From a virus: a stretch of DNA of 64,000 bases. The stretch lies in the UHGV virus genome UHGV-0210596. One strand, written 5' to 3'. This document shows, in pieces, positions 3,595 to 42,442 of this stretch (its first letter is position 1; every line of letters begins with the position of its first letter). The notes under the pieces are model-generated. The model did not search any database, was not told the DNA's origin, and saw nothing but the letters and a program-made list of their open reading frames with translations. Both the position numbers and the translations under genes were made by a program.

Positions 3595-4168
3595 CTTTGA
3601 GGGCGAATAAACCTTGATAGCCGTTGGCAATCGTGTTTTTGACGATTTCCAGTGCTTGCTTCGGGTCGTTGTTGGACTTCTTGATTAATTGTTCGTATCC
3701 GATGCGTTCCGATTTTTCCGATTTGTACGGGCGTTTGGTTTCCTTGCGGTAATCGAGCCAAAGTTGCCACGGCTCGGCAAATTCGGGGGCGACAAAATCG
3801 GCGTCAACACTTAAAGTATTAGTTGAGATTTTGGATGTAATGGTGTGCCCTTGACTGCGCCCCTTAGTGCGCCCCTGACTGCGCCCCGTTCCTTTGTATT
3901 GCTCTATGTCACATATTGTTAGGTGCGCCCCTAAGTGCGCCCTTTGGTGCGCCCCTCGTGTGATTTTACCGCATTGCTCGAAAGCATCAAGCGCTGTGCG
4001 AACTTGCTTATATGTAACGCCGTTTTCAAGGGCAAAAGTTCTGCATTTTATCAGTACCTCGCCGTTTTCGTCAGCGGCAAACAGCAACGCGAGCCATATC
4101 CGCAACCTTTCGGGAGAACGGAATGTCGGGTCGTTAACCGTTTCCCGATTTATCGTTATCGTGTCCAT
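3461..4168 (-). CDS. Phage replication initiator (Rep/O-like)
   Basis: N-terminal wHTH-like region, LTICD..QY motif flanked by 4-aa repeats, C-terminal W..WLDYRKE....YKS...IANGYQGLF domain. Confidence 0.8.
   Translation of the reverse strand: MDTITINRETVNDPTFRSPERLRIWLALLFAADENGEVLIKCRTFALENGVTYKQVRTALDAFEQCGKITRGAHQRAHLGAHLTICDIEQYKGTGRSQGRTKGRSQGHTITSKISTNTLSVDADFVAPEFAEPWQLWLDYRKETKRPYKSEKSERIGYEQLIKKSNNDPKQALEIVKNTIANGYQGLFALKDERKDKRNNSAVRSGDDRYAALERAAATILCSNDAYGCSGNGQG
3844..3954 (-). repeat. Iterons inside rep (putative replication origin)
   Basis: TGCGCCC (GGGCGCA on minus) at 3856, 3868, 3880 and 3924, 3936, 3948, variant at 3844; 12-bp period, 44-bp step between blocks. Confidence 0.8.
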
Positions 4169-5569: not shown

Positions 5570-6016
5570 TTATTTGGAGTTGGTTGCATAGGGTAGACGT
5601 GGGGCTTCGCGTTCCATTTGGGCAACAGCAGCATTGACGGAAATGAATAAGGGAAGCATAGATCCTATTGCTCCTTCTTCATTTAGTGTACTGAAATTCT
5701 CTTTCCGAAAATAGATGTTCACCCCTGCACCCGTAAGCCGTTTAACGGTTTCCAGCATCTCAGAGGCTGAACGTCCAAGGCATGAAAGTTCGGGAACGAT
5801 AAGCGTATCAACGTGGTGAGCCTCGCAGTATTGCAGACACTCCGACAGGATAGGGCGCTTCACATCGCTTGTGGGTTCTATAAAAGGCAAGCGAGCAAAT
5901 ATGTAGCCGCGTTCATCGGCTATGGCAGCAAGTTCACACGCGAAACTCGCAGCATCTACGCGGTTCGTTTCAGGTGATCTACAGGCGTATACAACACAGG
6001 TCTGTTTCGTTTTCAT
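5570..6016 (-). CDS. Truncated, degenerate serine resolvase-like protein
   Basis: RP.L..C, DTLIV.ELS.LGRS..E, AQMERE; N-terminal YxRxS replaced by YACRS; no DNA-binding domain. Confidence 0.7.
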   Translation of the reverse strand: MKTKQTCVVYACRSPETNRVDAASFACELAAIADERGYIFARLPFIEPTSDVKRPILSECLQYCEAHHVDTLIVPELSCLGRSASEMLETVKRLTGAGVNIYFRKENFSTLNEEGAIGSMLPLFISVNAAVAQMEREAPRLPYATNSK

Positions 6017-8841: not shown

Positions 8842-9963
8842 TTAGTCAACACGCATCGGCATAACCAATACGCGGTATATTGTTTTATCGGCCTTTAAGG
8901 CAGGGACTAACAATATCGGGTGTGATGCGTCATTGGCACGCAATACTAATTCGCCTGCAAATGCGCTTAATGCGCAAGCAAGGTTTTTGTATGCGAAGTC
9001 AATGTCAAGTTCGTGGTTTGTCGTGCCGTATATCAGTTCGGAGGCATCTTGCGATGTGTCCTTATCCCTCGTAGAGACGTGTATTTGGCCGTTAGTGTCA
9101 ACGGATAAGTGAATACTCGGGATGCGGTCGTTGGCCAAAATAGCCACGCGCGAAAGCGTTGTGCGCAGTGTTGCGGCATCAACTCGCGCTTCGGTTTTGG
9201 TTTCGTTGGGGAATACGCGATTGGCATCGGGGTAATTTCCGGCAATAAGCGCGGAGGTAAATTCGACCGTTGCCGTTTTGAGTGTGACGGACTTTTCGGC
9301 TATTGTTATGGATGCTTCGCCGTTTTCGCAGTTGCATATATCCGCCATCATCTGTGCGTATCTTGTCGGGATTACGACAGCGGCGGTTTTAATGCTCGTA
9401 AAATCGGTAATGGATAATTGCGCCAATAAGCGTGTATCCGTAGCCGTGAATGTCAGAGACGAGTCGCCGAAGGCTATTTGCACGCCTTGTAGTTGAGCGT
9501 GGTAATCGGCTTCCGTAGCGGCTGCAAAGGCGGTTGCCTTGATGCCGCGAGCGATGTCTTCGGTGAGGACTTTGTATGTCGTCCCTGCGGCGTTGACCGC
9601 TTGCGGATAGATTGCTGCGTCATAAGCGTTTAGTCCATACTTGCCGTTGGGTGTGGTTATTTCCACCATATTTGTATCGTCATACGTTATCGTCATTGGC
9701 ATTTCGCCGATAGCGCGGACGAGTGCGCCGAGTTTTTTCGGGTCAACACATATCTTGCCGTTTCCGTCAACTTCTGTCGGATGCAGAGTTGCGGTTATAC
9801 GCGCTTCGGCATTAGAAGCCGTAAGGCGCATTGTTTGGTTGTCATCAACCTCCAATAGCAAGGAGGCTTGTGCAGTCAGTGTTTTGTTGAGGCTGCTGCT
9901 TGCGATTTTATCGAGCGTTTGGATTACGCCTAAATCTTTTGCGTTGATTGTGAATTTGAACAT
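8842..9963 (-). CDS. dnaN: DNA polymerase III beta sliding clamp homolog
   Basis: 373 aa; ATDTR.L, LIAGNYPD..RVFP, C-terminal VLVMPMR. Confidence 0.9.
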   Translation of the reverse strand: MFKFTINAKDLGVIQTLDKIASSSLNKTLTAQASLLLEVDDNQTMRLTASNAEARITATLHPTEVDGNGKICVDPKKLGALVRAIGEMPMTITYDDTNMVEITTPNGKYGLNAYDAAIYPQAVNAAGTTYKVLTEDIARGIKATAFAAATEADYHAQLQGVQIAFGDSSLTFTATDTRLLAQLSITDFTSIKTAAVVIPTRYAQMMADICNCENGEASITIAEKSVTLKTATVEFTSALIAGNYPDANRVFPNETKTEARVDAATLRTTLSRVAILANDRIPSIHLSVDTNGQIHVSTRDKDTSQDASELIYGTTNHELDIDFAYKNLACALSAFAGELVLRANDASHPILLVPALKADKTIYRVLVMPMRVD

Positions 9964-15025: not shown

Positions 15026-15871
15026 TTATACAATAGCATCCTTTGCTTTACGGACGTTAAAACCATTGTCATGCAACGCGTGGATGAAGCGCCGTCCGCG
15101 TTCGTTCCAAACGGTATACATTGACGACCCGATACTTCCGTCAGACCGCGTATAGGTCTGTGTGCGTGTCGCGGATAAATTCCAGCTTGCATAAGGTTGT
15201 TTCAGCATCCACATTCCCGATTGACGGAAGATTACGCCGGCTTGTTTAAGTTGTTTGTTGAGGCTGTGCGCGTCCATTCCCAATTCCTTTGCAATTTGGG
15301 TTGTGGTCATAGTGTTTACACTTTGCAGCGTGGTGTCGTAGTAGTTCACCTTTGGTGCTTGCTCTAAGATGGTTTGTTCGTTACGCGTGTTGGTGTTTTC
15401 GAGTTGTTGCAGTCTTGACTATTGTCGTGCAAGGGTGGCTTGGGCTATTTGCAGCGCCTTTGCCATTATCACCTCGGGCGAGTCATCGTCCTTAGCGGCG
15501 ATATATCCACCGGTCATTCGGATTTCGCGTAGAATCTTCTTGACGCCTTTCTTAAACAGTTTGGCTGTTGGTTTGCGGCTCTGCATAAGAACTTCGTACA
15601 AACCATTCTCTGTCAGCATCCATACGTTTCGATTTTGACCTGACACAAACATTGTTTGGGTCAGCTTTTCGTCATCATCCACCGTCTGCATCATCATAGA
15701 CACATCAGAGTGCCCAATAAAAGTTGCAACGTCTTTCGCCTTGAACAATGATTCTTCGGGTGTTCCGTAGATAATGAACGACTGCCCTACCACTTCCACT
15801 TCTTTAAGTGGCTGCACCGCCTTTGTTTCGTTTGTTTCCGGCATAAATAAATTGTCGATATTGTTTATCAT
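15026..15871 (-). pseudogene. BRO-N / KilAC antirepressor split by one in-frame TAG
   Basis: BRO-N (LTENGLYEVLMQSRKP) and KilAC (TTTQIAKELG) ORFs share a frame; TAG at 15419-21 is the only stop between them. Confidence 0.8.
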
Positions 15872-15928
15872 TTTGTTTTATGTTTATGGGGGTAGTTTGA
15901 AAATCATTGCTTGTCAACTCGGCGATTT

Positions 15929-16792
15929 TCATAGAAGCCTCAATGCAAAGCCGTCTCCACCGAACAATTTGTGGAGAAAGGCCAAACCTTTTTGAGTACA
16001 GTATGTGGTTATAGGGATGAACATCCGTCCGTCCGAACGTTGTATGGGTGCGCCCTCGACCACGGTAAAATATCCGGCATTTACGTATTTCTGTGCAGGT
16101 TCGTTGCTATGACGGAAAAGGATGCCGTGTTCGCGCAGTTTCTTGAACAATGTATTGCGGCCAAAATCGAGTTTGAGAATTTTAGCGGCTTGCGACATCG
16201 ATACGAGCGTGTCTGCGTTAAACGCGGTGTCGGCAAAATCTGCTTTGGGTTTGAGTTTGGCGATGGTGCGCTCCTGCTGCCGGTTGGAGGTTTCAAGTTT
16301 TTCTATTTGCCTCGCTTGGTCTGCCGCAAGTTGCAACGCCTCGGCAAACGATGTCGGGACTGCAAAGCCACCGTTTAGTTTTTCTTTTTCGAGTTCCTCC
16401 CAGCGATCTATGATTTTGGCGCGTAGGATTACATCATACCCGCTTGCCAGTAAGAAACACGCCTTTTTGTTTAAGTTGTACATGGAACGTGCTTCTCCTT
16501 TTGCATCGACGTAAGATGTTTCTGTGATTTGGTACTGGTTCGTGCCATTCCCAAAAGCAAAGTCAAGAATGGTTTTTTGAGAGCGTTCTGACAAATACTT
16601 ATATTGCGTTCTGTCTCCTCGATGATACTCTCCGTCAACCAATCCACATGTGGATTGGTTGGATTTGTTAATGGATTCCACCATCTTACGGATGTCTCGC
16701 ATAACATGTGCGTGTTGTTTGCCTGTAATCTCGGCGATTTGGAGACTGCTCATAGTTTGGGCGACCCCTGCAAGCGATTTCTCGTTTAGCAT
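15929..16792 (-). CDS. Rha-family / KilAC antirepressor
   Basis: MSSLQIAEITGKQHAHVMRDIR, SYVD, PTSFAEALQLAA, GRNTLFKKLR. Confidence 0.9.
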   Translation of the reverse strand: MLNEKSLAGVAQTMSSLQIAEITGKQHAHVMRDIRKMVESINKSNQSTCGLVDGEYHRGDRTQYKYLSERSQKTILDFAFGNGTNQYQITETSYVDAKGEARSMYNLNKKACFLLASGYDVILRAKIIDRWEELEKEKLNGGFAVPTSFAEALQLAADQARQIEKLETSNRQQERTIAKLKPKADFADTAFNADTLVSMSQAAKILKLDFGRNTLFKKLREHGILFRHSNEPAQKYVNAGYFTVVEGAPIQRSDGRMFIPITTYCTQKGLAFLHKLFGGDGFALRLL

Positions 16793-16865
16793 AATTTGAT
16801 TATGTGTTTGATTATTATTGGCTAAAAAAAGCGGCCAACGCAAATGCGTCAGTCGCTTAGAGAAT

Positions 16866-23761: not shown

Positions 23762-24345
23762 CGCGACTTTTGACCGCAAAATCGAGTTTTCGCGACAAAA
23801 ATTTTCGAGTTTTTGAGTTTTGAGTCTTTTTAGAGAGTATATCAAGTATAATTTCGTCTTGCTTACGCGCACACACGCACGCACACGTGTAAGGTATACA
23901 GAGTCTAAGGAAACAAACCACTCCCGGTGGGGAGGAGGTGGGGGCGGACTGGGTATAGTCTGCCCAAGGGAGGTCAGCAGAAAAAACCGACAGAAGTCGG
24001 CGACTGCAAAACCTCGGGCAGACTATCCTGCGGAAACACTCCCGTCCGGGTTATCGGCGTACGGCGTTTACCGGGGCGAGGCAACGGGCAATCGCCCTCG
24101 CTTGACTGATGTAGCATTGCCGCTATGTAAGCGCGTCAGTCTTTCGTCTCGCGTCTCGGCTGTCTTACAATCCCATAGTAACCGAGTTTCGTATCACCGC
24201 GCCCTACCGTAGGCTATCCCGACGACGCGGCTTTTTTGATATTCGGCGGCGAAGTTATATAAAAAAACTGTATCATCCAAACGAGACGGAATCAGTATGT
24301 TAACCGAATTAACAATTCTGACACACAGAACAGCATAAAACGCAT

Positions 24346-24588
24346 CAAATGTTTCAGCAGACAATTTGCCTCATACATAATAACCTACATTTCAAACGGT
24401 TAAGAGCGGATGCTATTTTTGCAGTCCCAAACATTCCGCTCAAAAGTCGGATTTTGCGGTTAATTAAGTATATGGCAGAAAATCAAATATTTACACCTTG
24501 ATAAACCCAATGCCTGACATATCCATAAGCGCACTAAAACACCCAAAAAATAACAAATGTTTCAGCAGATTTTCCGTTTGCTGAAACA
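24346..24588. repeat. Putative attP with integrase arm-type sites
   Basis: CAAATGTTTCAGCAGA at 24346 and 24554; inverted TGCTGAAACA at 24579; directly upstream of integrase. Confidence 0.6.
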
Positions 24589-24627
24589 CGAATTTTTAAG
24601 ATTATTTAACATTAAACGCATAATGAT

Positions 24628-25794
24628 ATGATAACAACCAAGCTCGTTTCCGATGCTCGACGCTGCAATGCGGTGCGCATCCGTATCACCAACAACCGTC
24701 GCAAGGCCGAAATAACGACCGATATGTACCTTTCGCCGTTAGACCTCGACCTTGCCTTATCACCCAATCCGCCTAAGCGCTTACAGCGGCAGGCTAATGT
24801 GCTGGCCTACTGGCAGAAGCAACTTGCCGACCTAAAAATGGAAATCTATCAGGAGGGTGGTCGATATATGGATGTCGGCGAAATCAAGGAGCGTGTCGCA
24901 GAAAAGCTATTCGGGGAGGTCCGCATGGGCGAAGAATGCCGCTTCGGTGTTCTGTATCGCGACTTTGCAGAACGTAGGCGCAGGGCATCGACTCGTAGAG
25001 TATACATTGCTGAACTCGAAGTACTTAAACGATTCGACTCAAGAGTGGAAGATATGCCGATAACCAATATTGACTATAAATATCTTCGGCGTTATTTAGA
25101 TTGGCTATACGCACAAGGGTATAGTTCTGGGACTATAAACAACTATATGATGGCTATCCATGCCGTTATCCGCGAGGCTATCCGCAATGAGATACTTGAC
25201 CGCGACCCGTTTATGAAGTTGGATAAGTTGCCGCGGTCGCCGAAGCGCAAACGGTCATTGTCGGTCGATGCTCTGCGAGAGCTGTTTGCATTCAAGCCTA
25301 AATATAATAGCACGGCTGTTGCCTTAGATTTTTTTCGCTTATCGTTTATGCTTATTGGCATCAATACAGCTGATTTACTTAGTCTTGCCAATATAGTTGA
25401 CGGACGCATCAACTATGAGAGACATAAGACGCGTAAGCAATACAGTATCAGGGTTGAGCCGGAAGCGCTGGAAATAATAAATCGCTATAAGTCTGATAAG
25501 CGCGGTCAGTTGTTGACGTTTGCGGATAAATGGACGTTGCGGAACTCGGCTTGCAAGGCTGTAACCAAGGCACTGCGACGCGTGTCAGGACGCGACGACC
25601 TGACGCCATATTGGGCGCGTCACACGTGGGCGACCATAGCATACAGCATCGGCATACCCAAGGATGTTATAAGTCAGGCGTTAGGACACTCATTCGGCGT
25701 TGCGGTCACGGATGTATATATCGACTACGACAACGACAAGGTAGATGCGGCTAATCGCAAGGTCTTAGACTGGGTACTTTACGGTAAGCGGTAG
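24628..25794 (+). CDS. int: Tyrosine integrase
   Basis: SAM-like domain, YERHKT, YWARHTWAT, ALGHS, TDVY; GIN..DL at the usual catalytic Arg position. Confidence 0.93.
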   Translation: MITTKLVSDARRCNAVRIRITNNRRKAEITTDMYLSPLDLDLALSPNPPKRLQRQANVLAYWQKQLADLKMEIYQEGGRYMDVGEIKERVAEKLFGEVRMGEECRFGVLYRDFAERRRRASTRRVYIAELEVLKRFDSRVEDMPITNIDYKYLRRYLDWLYAQGYSSGTINNYMMAIHAVIREAIRNEILDRDPFMKLDKLPRSPKRKRSLSVDALRELFAFKPKYNSTAVALDFFRLSFMLIGINTADLLSLANIVDGRINYERHKTRKQYSIRVEPEALEIINRYKSDKRGQLLTFADKWTLRNSACKAVTKALRRVSGRDDLTPYWARHTWATIAYSIGIPKDVISQALGHSFGVAVTDVYIDYDNDKVDAANRKVLDWVLYGKR

Positions 25795-25801
25795 TTGCGA
25801 G

Positions 25802-26026
25802 GGGCGCACCAAAGGGCGCAGTCAAGGGCGCACCTAATCACTTATAGCACAATGCGCTGCAAAGGAGTTGGGCGCACTTAGGGGCGCACCTAAGGGCGCA
25901 CCCCGAAAGCGGTTGCCGTGCGCCTAATAACACAAACGACAACACAAACGATAACACAATTAACGCACATATAGACAGCGCATTGTCGCGAAGTGCAACA
26001 CATGGAGCAACACAAGCTGCAACACA
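25802..26026 (+). repeat. Two intergenic iteron-like modules
   Basis: GGGCGCA at 25802/14/26 and 25870/82/94; AACACA at 25929/41/53 and 25997/26009/26021. Confidence 0.85.
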
Positions 26027-26110
26027 CGAAAATTGCCGCTACCAGAGGCACAAATTCGGCACGGTCTACCAGTGAGGTGCAACGCAAGCAGCAACGCAAC
26101 TTTCAGGCAT

Positions 26111-26156
26111 AAAATTAGCCGCCGTTACCGGAACAGATAACGGCGGCTTGATTTTA
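26111..26156. terminator. Bidirectional terminator between integrase and serine recombinase
   Basis: AGCCGCCGTTA/TAACGGCGGCT stem with A- and T-rich flanks. Confidence 0.7.
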
Positions 26157-26161
26157 CGGCA

Positions 26162-26911
26162 TCAGACTCGTAGGATGTTTTTTTCGCGCCACCAATCGTA
26201 GAATGTCGATAGGCTTATGCGTCCACCTGACTGTTTGCAGAACGTTTCGGGTGCAACGTCCATCAGCCGCTCCAATTCTTCGTAGGCCGATTTTACGGTC
26301 TTACCCGCGGCCTTTTGCTCCATTGTCCAGCGATAAGCCGGGGATGCCTCTCGCCATCGCTGTGCGTTTTGAGCACGCGCGATTAGGCTGGCCTGCACCG
26401 CCGGTGTCATATCCGTACCCGGCTTATTGCCGATGTGCGTTTGGATGTTTCCGGCCTTGGTTACGCGATAGCCTTTGGCTGCGATTTCTTTGCGGTGTGC
26501 CTCCACCGTGTTTTTCGCGCGGTGCTTGATGCGCATCCTTTCGTCCTCATCAAGGATAGCAAGGACGGATAGGGTGATGCGACTGCCTATGTCGTCGGCG
26601 TCCAGCCGTAGGCCGTTTTTGCAGGCAACGATGCCGATGCCTGCCTCTTTTGCATTAATCATAAGCCGCACCATGTCCATTTGAGAACGGCCTATACGGC
26701 TTGTGTCGCCAACGTAGATTGTATCTCCACGCTTACACTTGCCAAGGAGTGTTTGCAGTTGCCTGTCTTCGTAGGACACGCCACCGCTTTCGTGTTCCTC
26801 GACGATGCCGTCAACGCGCTTAGGGTCAACGCCATAGCGCTTTATGTCCTCCAATTGTTGCGCGTAATCTTGATTACGCGTAGACACGCGCAAATAGATA
26901 TATTCTGCCAT
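26162..26911 (-). CDS. Serine recombinase (resolvase/invertase family)
   Basis: YLRVST..Q, E.ESG, GDTI.V...SRIGRS, ER..I..R. Confidence 0.9.
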   Translation of the reverse strand: MAEYIYLRVSTRNQDYAQQLEDIKRYGVDPKRVDGIVEEHESGGVSYEDRQLQTLLGKCKRGDTIYVGDTSRIGRSQMDMVRLMINAKEAGIGIVACKNGLRLDADDIGSRITLSVLAILDEDERMRIKHRAKNTVEAHRKEIAAKGYRVTKAGNIQTHIGNKPGTDMTPAVQASLIARAQNAQRWREASPAYRWTMEQKAAGKTVKSAYEELERLMDVAPETFCKQSGGRISLSTFYDWWREKNILRV

Positions 26912-33287: not shown

Positions 33288-33326
33288 GGTAAGTTAAGTG
33301 GGTAAGTTAAGTGGGTAAGTTAAGTT
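33288..33326 (+). repeat. 13-bp tandem repeat GGTAAGTTAAGTG x3
   Basis: Directly upstream of helicase ATG. Confidence 0.85.
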
Positions 33327-33333
33327 GTTTAAG

Positions 33334-34737
33334 ATGGTAAGTTCGGTAGTATATGATTATGTTGCTTCGCATTTTGCGGGGGAGTTGAAAGATGTTATTT
33401 GTCCTTATTTCGGGGGCAAGGATAGCTTTGTGAATAAGTCTAAGGTTGCGCGGTTGGCGGATGCTTTCGGGACGGTTATGCGTGATGTGAAGCAGCCGTT
33501 GGTTTATTTCGGGGATTCGGGACAGGCGCATGTGTTTAACGGGCGTTTTTTCGAGGATGTGGGGAGTGCCGTTCCGTTTTTCTCGGAGGTTTTTCGCCGG
33601 GCGATGGTGATGTTGAAGGTTCGGTCTGTGTATTGTTGTTATGCGCCGAAGGATGTTGCGAGGGTTTGTATTGAGTCGGTGTCGTCGATGAGCGAGTTTG
33701 CGTATAGACCCGATAGGCGTTACTTGATATTCGTCAACGGCGTATTTGACACGAAAGACGGCAAGCTGAAAGACTTCTCGCGGCGATATGTAAGCGACAT
33801 TGTGATTGATATGGATTACAACCAGCGGGCGTCCTCGTTGCTTTGGGATAGGAAGCTCAAAGAGATTATCCCCGATAAAGATTTCAGGGACGCTTTTCAG
33901 TTGTTTTGCGGCTCGTTGTTGATAAACCGTAATGATGTGCGCATCGAGTACGTGTGCTATCTTGTCGGGCCGGGGTCTAACGGCAAGAGCGTTTTGGCCG
34001 GGGCTATCGAGGGGGTTTTTGGCGAGCGCTATTTTTCGCGGTTTACGCCCAGGCAGTTGTTCAAGGACAGTGATGCGAGGGTGAATATTGCCGCATTGCG
34101 CGGTAAGATAGCCAATTTAGTTGGTGACTTGAATGAGAAAGATATAAGCGGTGGCGATTTCAAGCGGTTTGTAAGCGGTGAGATGTTTCAGGGGCGCAGG
34201 AACTACGGCGACCCCATACAAGTGCCTGCACCGCCGCTATTGTGCTGTACGAATGCTTTGCCCGAGAGTGCCGATGACAGTTACGGGTACCACAGGCGAC
34301 AGTTGCCCGTGTACACTACGCGCAGGCAATGGACGGAAGAAGATAAAGACCCGTTTTTGACCAAGAAGTTGACTGAGACCGAGTCTCGTCAAGCCATATT
34401 CAACTGGATATACGCAGGGTATAAGAAAGTGATGAATAACGGCGGCAATATCGAGTTGGGTAAAGACGTGCGCGAAGCTATGGATGCTATGCGAGATGAT
34501 AGCAATCCGCAGCGCCGTTGGTGGCGTGATTGTCGCTATACCACTGCGAGCGACGAAACGGGTGTTTGGATGCCGCTTAAAGAAGTGTATGCGGACTATA
34601 TGCGATATTGTGAAGATACGGGGGAGGAAGTTCTCGGTGCGCGAGAGATTTCCGCGTTGTTAAGAAACCTCGGGGTAGAGCAGCGTCGTTCTCGCGGCGG
34701 CATGCAGTTCTTGCTGGGGAAGAAAGATAGTGAGTGA
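33334..34737 (+). CDS. D5/P4-family SF3 helicase (C-terminal part of primase-helicase)
   Basis: FVNGVFD D5_N-like region, Walker A GPGSNGKS, FK..VSGE, TN.LP...D.S.G..RR. Confidence 0.9.
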   Translation: MVSSVVYDYVASHFAGELKDVICPYFGGKDSFVNKSKVARLADAFGTVMRDVKQPLVYFGDSGQAHVFNGRFFEDVGSAVPFFSEVFRRAMVMLKVRSVYCCYAPKDVARVCIESVSSMSEFAYRPDRRYLIFVNGVFDTKDGKLKDFSRRYVSDIVIDMDYNQRASSLLWDRKLKEIIPDKDFRDAFQLFCGSLLINRNDVRIEYVCYLVGPGSNGKSVLAGAIEGVFGERYFSRFTPRQLFKDSDARVNIAALRGKIANLVGDLNEKDISGGDFKRFVSGEMFQGRRNYGDPIQVPAPPLLCCTNALPESADDSYGYHRRQLPVYTTRRQWTEEDKDPFLTKKLTETESRQAIFNWIYAGYKKVMNNGGNIELGKDVREAMDAMRDDSNPQRRWWRDCRYTTASDETGVWMPLKEVYADYMRYCEDTGEEVLGAREISALLRNLGVEQRRSRGGMQFLLGKKDSE

Positions 34738-39583: not shown

Positions 39584-42355
39584 TTATCTAAGTAAATTCT
39601 TGTTCCAACGGTTTTTAGCCGCATAAGCAAATGCCGAATACAGATTATTGTATACAAACGGAGACGCTGTCGGCAGCGGTGCCTTCTTCGGTCGAGCGTC
39701 AAGCTCGAAAACCGCACGCAGGCAAATAGCGTCCATTAAGTCCGGTGAATGTCGGAACTTAGCACGATACTCATCCTTAGAGCGGTAGTATATACGTTTG
39801 TTTCGCGTTGTAGTTGCAAACACGTTAATTTCGTCATACAGAATATCGCGGATAGTTCGTGTTGCCCCACCCTTTGCGTAAGGGATACGCAAATCTGGAG
39901 ATAATGAGCAAGCAATATCGCCTCGTTTAATCATCACCTCCGTTCGACCGAGCAATTGCGAGCGGCAATTAAAATAATCATCCCGAGTTACGGCGTTTCC
40001 GAACTCGTCAACCTCCTGTATCGCCCGTTTGTTAGCCGTAACCGCCACGCCGTTAGTCAGCCCCTGCATCCAATATCCGTGTCCCGTAGCGTCATAAGCG
40101 AAGCGTGTAACGTCAACGCCGTAAGCGTTAAGTTTAGTTTTAATCCATCCCGCTATTTCGTTAGGTTCGCCCGAGAACAGCTCGACCCCGACAATTTGCA
40201 GTCCGCGCCATATCACCATAGGCGACTTATCGTTATCCGCCTTACCCGAGGAAATGTCCATGGTAGCGTACATGTTGACGTCATCGCTTACGGGGTTTAG
40301 CCACAGATTGTTAATCATTTCGCGCGACACGTTGATTTCCTCCGTTTCCACTTCGCCGAAATATCCCTCGCCCACAATTTGGCGTTGCTCCGCGCCCGTA
40401 GCGTGTAGATTTGCGACAGATTGTCCACCCGTAGCGTTCACCAATTCGCGGTTAGAAGCGGCAGTACCCGTCAGCACCGTAAACGACTTCACGTAATCCA
40501 AACGCGAGATACCTGCGGCCAAATCGTCGGGTCGGTCGATAAGGCCTGCTGCGTCCGCTACTTCCTCGCGAGAGTCCCCCCAAACGATTTCGGCAGGAGA
40601 TTTACCCTTATTATACCAATATCGGACTTTGCCAATCATATCCTTACGCAGATACCAATCAGCGCCGATGTAGCCTGCATCGCATAGCATTTGAGTAGTC
40701 CAATGGTCGTGAGACGGGTTAAAGGATAATACCATTTGCGGTGTCATTCCCGAGCTGTCGCGGTTACGGCTAAACCAATATGCGAACATCTTAAACTCCT
40801 TCATTTCCGTAGCCTCGTCCACCATTATCAGAGACGCCTGCACTTTCTTAGCGTAATCTTGGAACTGTTCCCATTCCGCGGGGTTGTTTACATTAAAATT
40901 AGAGTGAATAAGTTGCAGCGAGCTATTCCATTGCGGCCACGAGAAAGTCGGGTAATCCGCCGAATTATACTCGCAGTTAGCGAAATTGCCGCATACCGTA
41001 ACACCGTCACGGAACATCGAGCCGCCCTTTTTGCTATCCTGCAAGCGGACGGAAATCAGTTTAGCCGCAAAGCCATAGTGCGTAACTCCCTGTAAAGCAT
41101 TGAGATACATTGCGAAAGTGTTGTGCGTAACGATAAAGTCGTCAGTCACATACAGATGCTCGGCGCCCGAAACCATAATGCAGCGGCATTGTTTTTTGCC
41201 GACATACTCACATTCTTTGAGCGTATGCCGCAATGTCCCCTTTCCGCGCCTAAACCCATCAAAAGTGCGAGACCGTTTAGAAGTCAGTCGGCACAAGTCG
41301 GTATTATGTTCCGTGTTGATACTTAAAACATAACACAGTTGACCCTCCTTCCTTTCGCCATTGTAAACATAGTGGGGGCGTTTAAGGGTAATATGACATC
41401 TGCCGCCGAGAGACCTCACAATCCATTGAACATCAGTGGCTAATTGATGACTGACCGTGTAGTAAAATATGTGTCCGTTCTTATCAACCGTACCGTCAGT
41501 GTCAATCAAACCCTGTAATAAAGCACGCCGAGATACTATATCTGAATACTTATAAATTTCGGGAATAAACTTTTCGTTAGAAAGTTTATGAGCCAATCCT
41601 AATTCACGAATATGCCTCACCAGCCCTTGTCCGCTGACCCGATAATCGCAATTATCGCCACTTAACTTGGCCGCTTTGTAGCCTGCGGCACGTACTGCGG
41701 CGATGATTTCATCTTCGGGGTTTGATAAAAAGGTTTGATATTTGCGGAAATGTCCGTCACCGAGCAATATGCCCAGTATATATGGGTCTATTGGCAGCGC
41801 CTTTGCGGCGAAATCAATTTCAGAGCAAAACGGAATGGCAACCTTACGACCTGCCTTAAACTTCGCCAATACATCTTCGAGTCGTTCCACTTTCCAGTCG
41901 CTATAATTGTTGTGGGCGGACTTGTATTGCACTTTCCAAAGATGGTTTTTGCAGCATTCCGTTTGTGCGCCGTCATCGAAAGTCAAGCGCCAAACGTCTA
42001 TTTCGCCTTGTTCGAAGATGTTTAGCACCCTTTGTGTTGAATTATCGGGGGCAAGGATTGCATCTCCGATGTTAAGCGACCCCATTTCGACAAATCCGTT
42101 AGGGGTTAAGACCTTGCTTGTATATGGTTGCGCCTTTCCTGACGTTGCTTGACCGCAGATAAAAACGAGGTTAGCTTCGCTTTGGCAGAGTTGTTCTTGC
42201 AGTCCCGGTTGTGGGATGAGGTCAATTTGGTTAGGTCGCAACTCGTATCCGTCCACCAGCGTTCGGCTTTTGCTTTTGGAGGTCGCAAGGATGCGTTCCG
42301 CTTCGGGATAAAGCGGCGGAAAGACCAATCCTTTTTTTGCGAGTGTGAATTTCAT
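39584..42355 (-). CDS. terL: Terminase large subunit with intein
   Basis: PQPGLQ, Walker A GQATSGK/T, Walker B IMVDEA, SFNP, nuclease MD.S...D and SPDLMDA. Confidence 0.9.
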   Translation of the reverse strand: MKFTLAKKGLVFPPLYPEAERILATSKSKSRTLVDGYELRPNQIDLIPQPGLQEQLCQSEANLVFICGQATSGKAQPYTSKVLTPNGFVEMGSLNIGDAILAPDNSTQRVLNIFEQGEIDVWRLTFDDGAQTECCKNHLWKVQYKSAHNNYSDWKVERLEDVLAKFKAGRKVAIPFCSEIDFAAKALPIDPYILGILLGDGHFRKYQTFLSNPEDEIIAAVRAAGYKAAKLSGDNCDYRVSGQGLVRHIRELGLAHKLSNEKFIPEIYKYSDIVSRRALLQGLIDTDGTVDKNGHIFYYTVSHQLATDVQWIVRSLGGRCHITLKRPHYVYNGERKEGQLCYVLSINTEHNTDLCRLTSKRSRTFDGFRRGKGTLRHTLKECEYVGKKQCRCIMVSGAEHLYVTDDFIVTHNTFAMYLNALQGVTHYGFAAKLISVRLQDSKKGGSMFRDGVTVCGNFANCEYNSADYPTFSWPQWNSSLQLIHSNFNVNNPAEWEQFQDYAKKVQASLIMVDEATEMKEFKMFAYWFSRNRDSSGMTPQMVLSFNPSHDHWTTQMLCDAGYIGADWYLRKDMIGKVRYWYNKGKSPAEIVWGDSREEVADAAGLIDRPDDLAAGISRLDYVKSFTVLTGTAASNRELVNATGGQSVANLHATGAEQRQIVGEGYFGEVETEEINVSREMINNLWLNPVSDDVNMYATMDISSGKADNDKSPMVIWRGLQIVGVELFSGEPNEIAGWIKTKLNAYGVDVTRFAYDATGHGYWMQGLTNGVAVTANKRAIQEVDEFGNAVTRDDYFNCRSQLLGRTEVMIKRGDIACSLSPDLRIPYAKGGATRTIRDILYDEINVFATTTRNKRIYYRSKDEYRAKFRHSPDLMDAICLRAVFELDARPKKAPLPTASPFVYNNLYSAFAYAAKNRWNKNLLR
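41120..42133 (-). mobile_element. 338-aa class 3-type intein with LAGLIDADG homing endonuclease
   Basis: Begins AQPY, ends VTHN/T; HLW, CRCI, LGILLGDG and LQGLIDTDG motifs. Confidence 0.9.
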
Positions 42356-42372
42356 ACAACCGTGGTTTTGTG

Positions 42373-42442
42373 CAAAGGTACGAATTTTTATTAAAGTTTT
42401 ACTCAAAATATTTGTTGTAATCAATTAGGTGTATTATATTTG
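42373..42442. promoter_or_regulatory. Divergent promoters for packaging and head-tail operons
   Basis: Minus TACCTTTG 42373-80; plus TTTG 42411-14, N20, TATATTTG 42435-42. Confidence 0.7.

Follow-up and report, generated by a model that had tools for sequence, protein, structure and literature searches.

A non-coding AACACA iteron block behind the integrase of a Bacteroidales-type temperate phage, a possible relic of an earlier initiator specificity

The integrase end and its repeat modules

The stretch of DNA analysed here, referred to as the window, is the 64,000-nucleotide virus sequence UHGV-0210596. It holds most of the genome of a temperate tailed phage, with genes for integrase, resolvase, RecT, a PD-(D/E)XK nuclease, RusA, terminase, capsid and tape measure proteins, and about 1.3 kb of the circle is apparently absent from it by comparison with the complete sibling genome G005 (65.8 kb). 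Bacteroidales are the source of the related integrases, and the phage is here called Bacteroidales-type. The terminase large subunit gene (39584-42424, minus strand) contains an internal LAGLIDADG/Hom_end domain, probably an intein, and the DNA polymerase III beta clamp gene (8842-9963, minus strand) has its three domains complete, with 93-95% identity in siblings. A second resolvase-domain gene lies at 5570-6016 (minus strand), and three neighbouring antirepressor-type genes (ANT, Bro-N and Rha-ANT) occupy 15026-16843 (minus strand). The segment 31000-34737 shows low GC and a strong GC skew; a 13-bp tandem repeat at 33288 directly precedes the gene of a D5-like primase-helicase (33325-34737), and the segment may be a second replication module.

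The 322 nt from the integrase stop codon to a terminator-like hairpin are filled by a repeat cassette, which starts 7 nt past the stop (Table 1). The attachment site attP would lie upstream of int, judging by comparison with related prophages, and the word repeated upstream of the integrase in the window is also found upstream of the integrase of a sibling, G001.

Table 1. Features of the integrase end and of the initiator gene, in window coordinates
Feature	Position	Strand	Remarks
Replication initiator (Rep), lambda-O/DnaD-like, predicted N-terminal winged helix	3461..4168	-	phrog_678, 270, 186
In-gene GGGCGCA iterons, probable primary origin	3856..3954	-	Spacing 12,12,44,12,12, then a 65% A+T stretch
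Repeated TGTTTCAGCA words 5' of the integrase, probable arm-type sites near the putative attP	24337..24589		Direct repeat D9
Tyrosine integrase	24628..25794	+	Pfam Phage_int_SAM_5 and Phage_integrase; phrog_1
Module 1, self-type, six GGGCGCA cores	25802..25900	+	Spacing 12,12,44,12,12; copy of the rep iterons
Module 2, six AACACA cores	25929..26026	+	Spacing 12,12,44,12,12; non-coding, probably copied from a rep origin with non-self specificity
Module 3, two CAACGCA cores	26079..26099	+	Similar to the latter half of a rep origin of the AACGCA class; 20-nt exact match in the rep of L062/G002
Terminator-like hairpin, end of cassette	26117..26148		Between the convergent integrase and resolvase genes; stem the same in G005
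Serine resolvase/invertase, convergent with the integrase	26162..26911	-	PF00239; phrog_125

A sequence-only reading of this DNA had described six AACACA words with the architecture of the self-type module. The description is exact, as both the positions of the words (25929, 25941, 25953, 25997, 26009 and 26021) and their spacing were reproduced, and the partial third set that it reported is likewise real, with GCAACGCAA at 26079 and 26091 and a 20-nt exact match in a sibling rep gene. A 6-mer recurring at offsets 0,12,24,68,80,92 is found at three places in the 64 kb window, namely the rep gene and modules 1 and 2, and was found in none of 200 mononucleotide shuffles of the window. A scan of the window with a 12-bp period showed AACACA triplets to be confined to module 2; in the complete sibling G005, 12-bp-paired CAACACA occurs in the cassette only and paired TAACACA is absent throughout. 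Hence the claim that no gene here carries these iterons holds, with no AACACA iteron set outside the cassette in either the window or G005.

Other short elements lie within and around the modules. A perfect 11-bp inverted repeat (25849-25859 / 25976-25986; 10/11 in G005) links the spacers of modules 1 and 2, and an inverted self-type site at 25918-25927 is absent from G005. Between modules 2 and 3 (26047-26063), GGCACA and GGCACG stand 11 bp apart, possibly as a decayed fourth block; the GGCACA word is GACACA in G005.

Iteron classes of initiator genes and the derivation of the modules

The structure predicted for the initiator of the phage shows an N-terminal helix-turn-helix with a wing and a likeness to winged-helix proteins; a Foldseek search with this model gave no structure match at E<=0.001. 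Back-translation of the window Rep and 15 full-length homologues assigned the iterons to GGCGCA (5), AGCGCA (3), AACGCA (4) and GACACA (4; n=16), and DNA confirms three of these four classes, GGGCGCA (L060), GCGACAC (L061) and CAACGCA (L062). None of the 16 back-translated Reps (0/16) falls into an AACACA class. The start of the predicted recognition helix varies with the iteron class (K, S, Q and mostly R), and this joint variation of word and helix speaks for an earlier specificity as the source of the AACACA block. The four sibling classes all fit RRCRCA, GGCGCA and AACACA are separated by G-to-A transitions only, and AACACA is one transition from two sibling classes. The layout in two groups is general in the initiator superfamily, since the codons of a conserved strand fall between the groups. 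Many distant initiators (L333-L412) have two iteron groups of 11- or 12-bp period and diverse words around the codons of this ITICNY strand.

The close kinship of the words allows modules 2 and 3 to be read as low-affinity sites of the own initiator, which would fill module 1 first and the other two at higher concentration, as a graded buffer or a longer roadblock. The common RRCRCA form and the purely transitional path from GGCGCA to AACACA agree with this, as do the GGGCGCA-type rep of all the sources with an intact module 2 (3/3) and the many imperfect units in strict phase of the rumen arrays described below. However, 3/6 positions differ between the two words, the recognition-helix residue changes with the word, and six identical non-self cores would be unnecessary for weak self-binding, which leaves this reading unlikely.

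AACACA iterons do exist in other initiator genes. Viral contigs were scanned for AACACA words in this arrangement, with 59 stretches returned, of which 7 were inspected, the remaining 52 being of other spacings; the inspected ones are four rep genes, one sibling cassette and two unrelated stretches. The sequence-only reading had proposed a search of Bacteroidales phage rep genes for AACACA iterons of 12-bp period with a 44-bp step, and such genes were found: three initiator genes (L025, L056, L059) carry exactly this arrangement, and a fourth (L031) has four plus four units with a 45-bp step. A narrower in-gene AACACA pattern had two matches, L031 again and one chance match. The phage of L031 (G003) is syntenic with the window, as 35 window ORFs of at least 100 aa, among them the integrase and the resolvase, are matched in it, mostly at 30-58% identity; the phage of L056 (G004) shares none of the window ORFs of at least 100 aa. 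Among annotated phages, no match to the cassette was found. Module 2 thus has the phased direct repeats of an iteron origin in the word and layout of an initiator gene, but the cognate initiator that such an origin has in its own genome is not there, the own rep being of the GGGCGCA type.

The spacers link the modules to the rep genes of the family. The module 2 spacer is identical to sibling rep spacers at 19/37 (L061), 17/37 (L062) and 15/37 (self) positions and to those of distant AACACA Reps at 10/37 and 12/37, and the module 1 spacer matches the own rep spacer at 21/37. By these matches, modules 1 and 2 were copied long ago from segments of rep genes in the family, with cores that have stayed uniform and spacers that have drifted, and the greater closeness of the module 2 spacer to the close family than to the distant AACACA Reps favours a relic. 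Against a relic stands that the donor allele is unsampled, AACACA being absent from the iteron types of the 16 close sibling Reps. Sequence comparison supports module 2 as a copy of an origin segment with non-self specificity. Its spacer has an in-frame stop codon and lacks a conserved cysteine codon. Gene conversion from a silent cassette into rep was ruled out by this stop codon and by the absence of the recognition helix from the cassette.

The A+T content after the modules is 36% over 28 nt for module 1 and 45% over 44 nt for module 2, and that after the in-gene rep iterons is 65% over 43 nt; by composition, no AT-rich unwinding element adjoins module 1 or module 2. This bears on the idea of a borrowed origin or sensor, in which a foreign initiator would start replication at module 2 or trigger the integrase end, with replication or excision when a relative infects, after the logic of P4 crr and of satellites. 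The crr element of P4 holds iterons of the alpha protein. It lies beside the int region and is a requirement for replication (bioRxiv 2026.03.30.715334); the cassette resembles it in its place by int/att as a second cis element, and the two-triplet origin geometry of module 2 is complete. On the other hand, module 2 is not followed by an AT-rich unwinding region, the phage has an intact initiator of its own, and the block seems dispensable in siblings; a borrowed origin is therefore improbable. P4 crr itself differs from the cassette in being indispensable and in having a primase-helicase as its reader; the cassette is absent from siblings and matches an initiator of the lambda-O/DnaD type.

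Variation among siblings and arrays behind related integrases

The cassette is known in three full-sequence states (window; G005/L166; G001/L167/L168) and two partial contig layouts, X1 and X2; contig layouts were obtained from 4 of 13 sequencing runs, with X3 and X4 uninformative. All three modules are present in G005 and L166, with a fourth unit in module 2 that in G005 belongs to the first triplet. Contig X2, with a GGGCGCA-type rep, retains the cassette with one unit fewer in the first triplet of module 2, and in contig X1 the segment 25914-26091 is missing and module 1 is kept. In G001, L167 and L168 (integrase 69% identical) only a decayed tail of module 2 is left, directly 3' of the integrase stop, which makes module 2 look old. 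G001 has a GACACA-type Rep and no self-type array, and G003 has no array of any kind; hence the cassette does not appear to be essential. The lack of a self array in G001, L167, L168 and G003 would, if these phages are viable, also speak against a need for the cassette in cis of the P4 crr kind. The extra blocks are likewise probably dispensable, judging from siblings that do without them.

The window and G005 are 90% identical in the cassette, 87% in the resolvase and 70% in the integrase. Over all modules, with the variable junction excluded, changes were counted at 0/92 core positions versus 15/203 others (p=0.003), and the cores of module 1 are the same at 42/42 positions. Module 2 alone gives 0/36 versus 3/62 (p=0.25), the value of 0/36 versus 9/89 (p=0.04) obtained with the variable junction included being inflated; modules 2 and 3 together give 0/50 versus 8/120 (p=0.057). 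In a pure relic with about 7% background divergence, all 36 core bases of module 2 would be unchanged with P of about 0.06, and those of modules 2 and 3 with P of about 0.02. Ongoing selection on the foreign blocks is thus suggested at a borderline level.

Such selection would be expected of an active decoy with several specificities. Here, modules 2 and 3 would be retained for their ability to bind or handcuff initiators of related phages, whether in a lysogen or during mixed infection, and would thereby slow the replication of these phages, as a natural, built-in PER or incompatibility device. The exact match of module 3 to a sibling rep, the syntenic relative with an AACACA initiator, the single transition between AACACA and two sibling classes and the unchanged cores of modules 2 and 3 are in keeping with a decoy; so is the loss of the block in the lineage with a GACACA-type Rep, as expected if the own Rep would be trapped. 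PER shares with this idea the interference in trans of origin DNA with the replication of an incoming phage. However, PER depends on copy number and requires a replicating, multicopy origin, for example that of Sfi21 in Streptococcus thermophilus (PMC6356513), whereas module 2 has six sites in single copy and, by sequence, no unwinding region. Likewise, in a study on lambda, iterons alone were insufficient for the inhibition phenotype, and multicopy lambda origin plasmids without oop left plating unreduced (PMC3349717). Module 2 is also deleted in X1, its cores taken alone show no significant conservation, and the rumen arrays look like degenerate forms of one self word. The decoy is therefore regarded as a rather doubtful reading. 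This applies equally to a polarised library of modules that temperate Bacteroidales phages would keep behind the integrase, in which the newest would match the own initiator and older ones be kept to trap or handcuff those of related phages, as a protein-free, sequence-encoded incompatibility system driving the switching of initiator specificity within the family.

Arrays are also found behind other integrases. Periodicity of 12 bp within 300 nt past the integrase stop was seen at 29/150 distinct loci versus 39/1293 background segments, and other periods (8-11 and 13-19) at no more than 2/150 integrase loci. By counts from a tree of 133 integrases, arrays occur in the clade of the window and, separately, in 23/42 members of a rumen-prophage clade, with two scattered cases. 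The rumen elements are integrated at tRNA genes, and a complete example of 66 kb codes for terminase, head protease, tape measure, initiator and loader. The longest of their arrays has about 17 units. The units keep strict register, and the arrays are found on either side of the terminator hairpin and look like degenerate variants of one word.

Initiators were located in 12 of the 22 genomes searched. Seven integrase-initiator pairs of rumen prophages, joined by a duplicated tRNA end (att-linked), were ranked against 151 arrays for the Rep signature, with a linker window that was set after the motifs had been inspected. The own array took rank 1, 1 (tied), 2, 3 and 4 of 151 in 5/7 pairs, with four different words, though for two of these five (G006, G022) the Reps are nearly the same; the remaining two of the seven pairs (G010, G017) scored zero. 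In a same-genome pair without att evidence the own array ranked 4, and a same-contig prophage pair of G030 gave a weak match. The ranks of the att-linked pairs indicate that a self-type array is the usual case behind the integrase. The sequence-only reading had recommended a survey of integrase-downstream regions for variable module sets; the long arrays found after related integrases are mostly self-type. Three apparent mismatches of initiator and array (L248-L316, L281-L322 and L263-L314) were discarded, as their att sites show different elements. Related prophages stand in tandem at the same tRNA-Pro gene in G020 (L246, L328, L280, L321), G017 (L327, L266) and G030 (67096). Every one of them has an initiator word of its own, and cross-talk between initiators would find a natural place here.

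Phased repeats of 12 bp but of other words were seen in the stretch from the tRNA att core to the start of the integrase gene (L221, L258, L267, L248, L306, just 5' of the integrase, and L315:447-475). They recur near the opposite prophage end and are probable arm-type sites. The probable arm sites of this integrase family thus share the 12-bp recurrence, from which it could be argued that the cassette consists of integrase arm or directionality-factor sites, or that it forms an RNA structure in the 3' untranslated region of the integrase gene. However, the words of the arm-like repeats are not those of the arrays, and the geometry and spacer of the modules derive from rep genes. For an RNA structure one may cite the 11-bp inverted repeat that joins the two spacers and the fold of the window cassette (z = -2.68), but the G005 cassette gives z = -0.21, no Rfam family was matched at gathering score, and the rumen arrays lie on both sides of the terminator hairpin. 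RNA structure was rejected for want of an Rfam match and a conserved fold, and sites other than those of an initiator are, as a whole, highly improbable.

Module 2 as a proposed relic and the known counterparts of the cassette

Given the repeat geometry, the homology to rep segments, the existing AACACA rep genes, the loss and decay in siblings and the self-type arrays after related integrases, the preferred reading, with a probability of about one half, sees in the AACACA block the relic of a former initiator specificity, inside a cassette at which the own initiator would find a second binding locus. The own initiator would bind module 1, which, being without an unwinding region, would not fire and may rather buffer the initiator or stall forks, as has been suggested of SPP1 gp38 on oriR. 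After a change in the recognition helix, a block that fits the altered initiator would arise beside the integrase stop, and the earlier ones (AACACA, then AACGCA) would remain until lost by deletion. Module 2 would then be the predecessor of module 1, from a time when the lineage had an AACACA-reading initiator. The sequence-only reading had offered three functions for the foreign block, and among these a record of past rep swaps fits best. A weapon against other phages and the borrowing of their Rep have so far no support: the block occurs once, no AT-rich unwinding region adjoins it, X1 has lost it, the G001 lineage keeps a decayed form of it, and its signs of current selection are borderline.

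Second binding loci of an initiator are known from several systems. In SPP1, gp38 binds repeats in its own gene and in a distant non-coding oriR, and gp38-bound oriR has been proposed to stall forks and to bring about the switch to concatemer replication with the exonuclease, recombinase and resolvase of the phage (gp34.1, gp35 and gp44; PMC6316719). The window is similar in having one repeat cluster in the initiator gene and another far off in non-coding DNA, and module 1, though not module 2, is such a second cluster of the repeats of the own initiator outside its gene. Its RecT, exonuclease and RusA are counterparts of the switch proteins (PMC6316719). However, SPP1 oriR has its own AT-rich unwinding element, which the window modules do not have, and SPP1 is lytic, whereas the site in the window adjoins the integrase of a temperate phage. 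Two of the window blocks are non-self, while the consulted text on SPP1 describes no blocks of foreign specificity (PMC6316719).

A second type of comparison is with the incompatibility sites of plasmids and chromids. The incA locus of P1 has extra iterons that titrate or handcuff the initiator. For the RctB sites of Vibrio ori2-inc, titration of the initiator and handcuffing have been described (PMC6090056). P1 incA, F incC and Vibrio ori2-inc resemble the window modules in having extra initiator-type repeats in variable number, without an unwinding region and dispensable. The window modules have each of the three marks of the incA type, with extra iterons, no unwinding region and a dispensability that siblings suggest. 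In contrast, those sites are self-specific and lie next to the plasmid or chromid origin, whereas the window modules belong to a temperate phage, lie at a distance of 22 kb and include two non-self blocks.

A full-text search, with most subscription journals outside it, found no literature on initiator arrays behind Bacteroidales integrases, stacked specificities or decoy origins. Second initiator-binding loci as such are already known; it is the arrays behind Bacteroidales integrases and the stacks of several specificities that were not found described. The sibling initiators offer a natural series of four or five binding words that vary together with one residue of the recognition helix, and their specificity is directly testable. 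The non-self blocks, if functional, would be a protein-free form of interference between phages. The array word tracks the own initiator in two or more separate branches of the Bacteroidales prophages, which points to a link between replication and the prophage end, possibly by fork stalling, buffering or licensing after excision.
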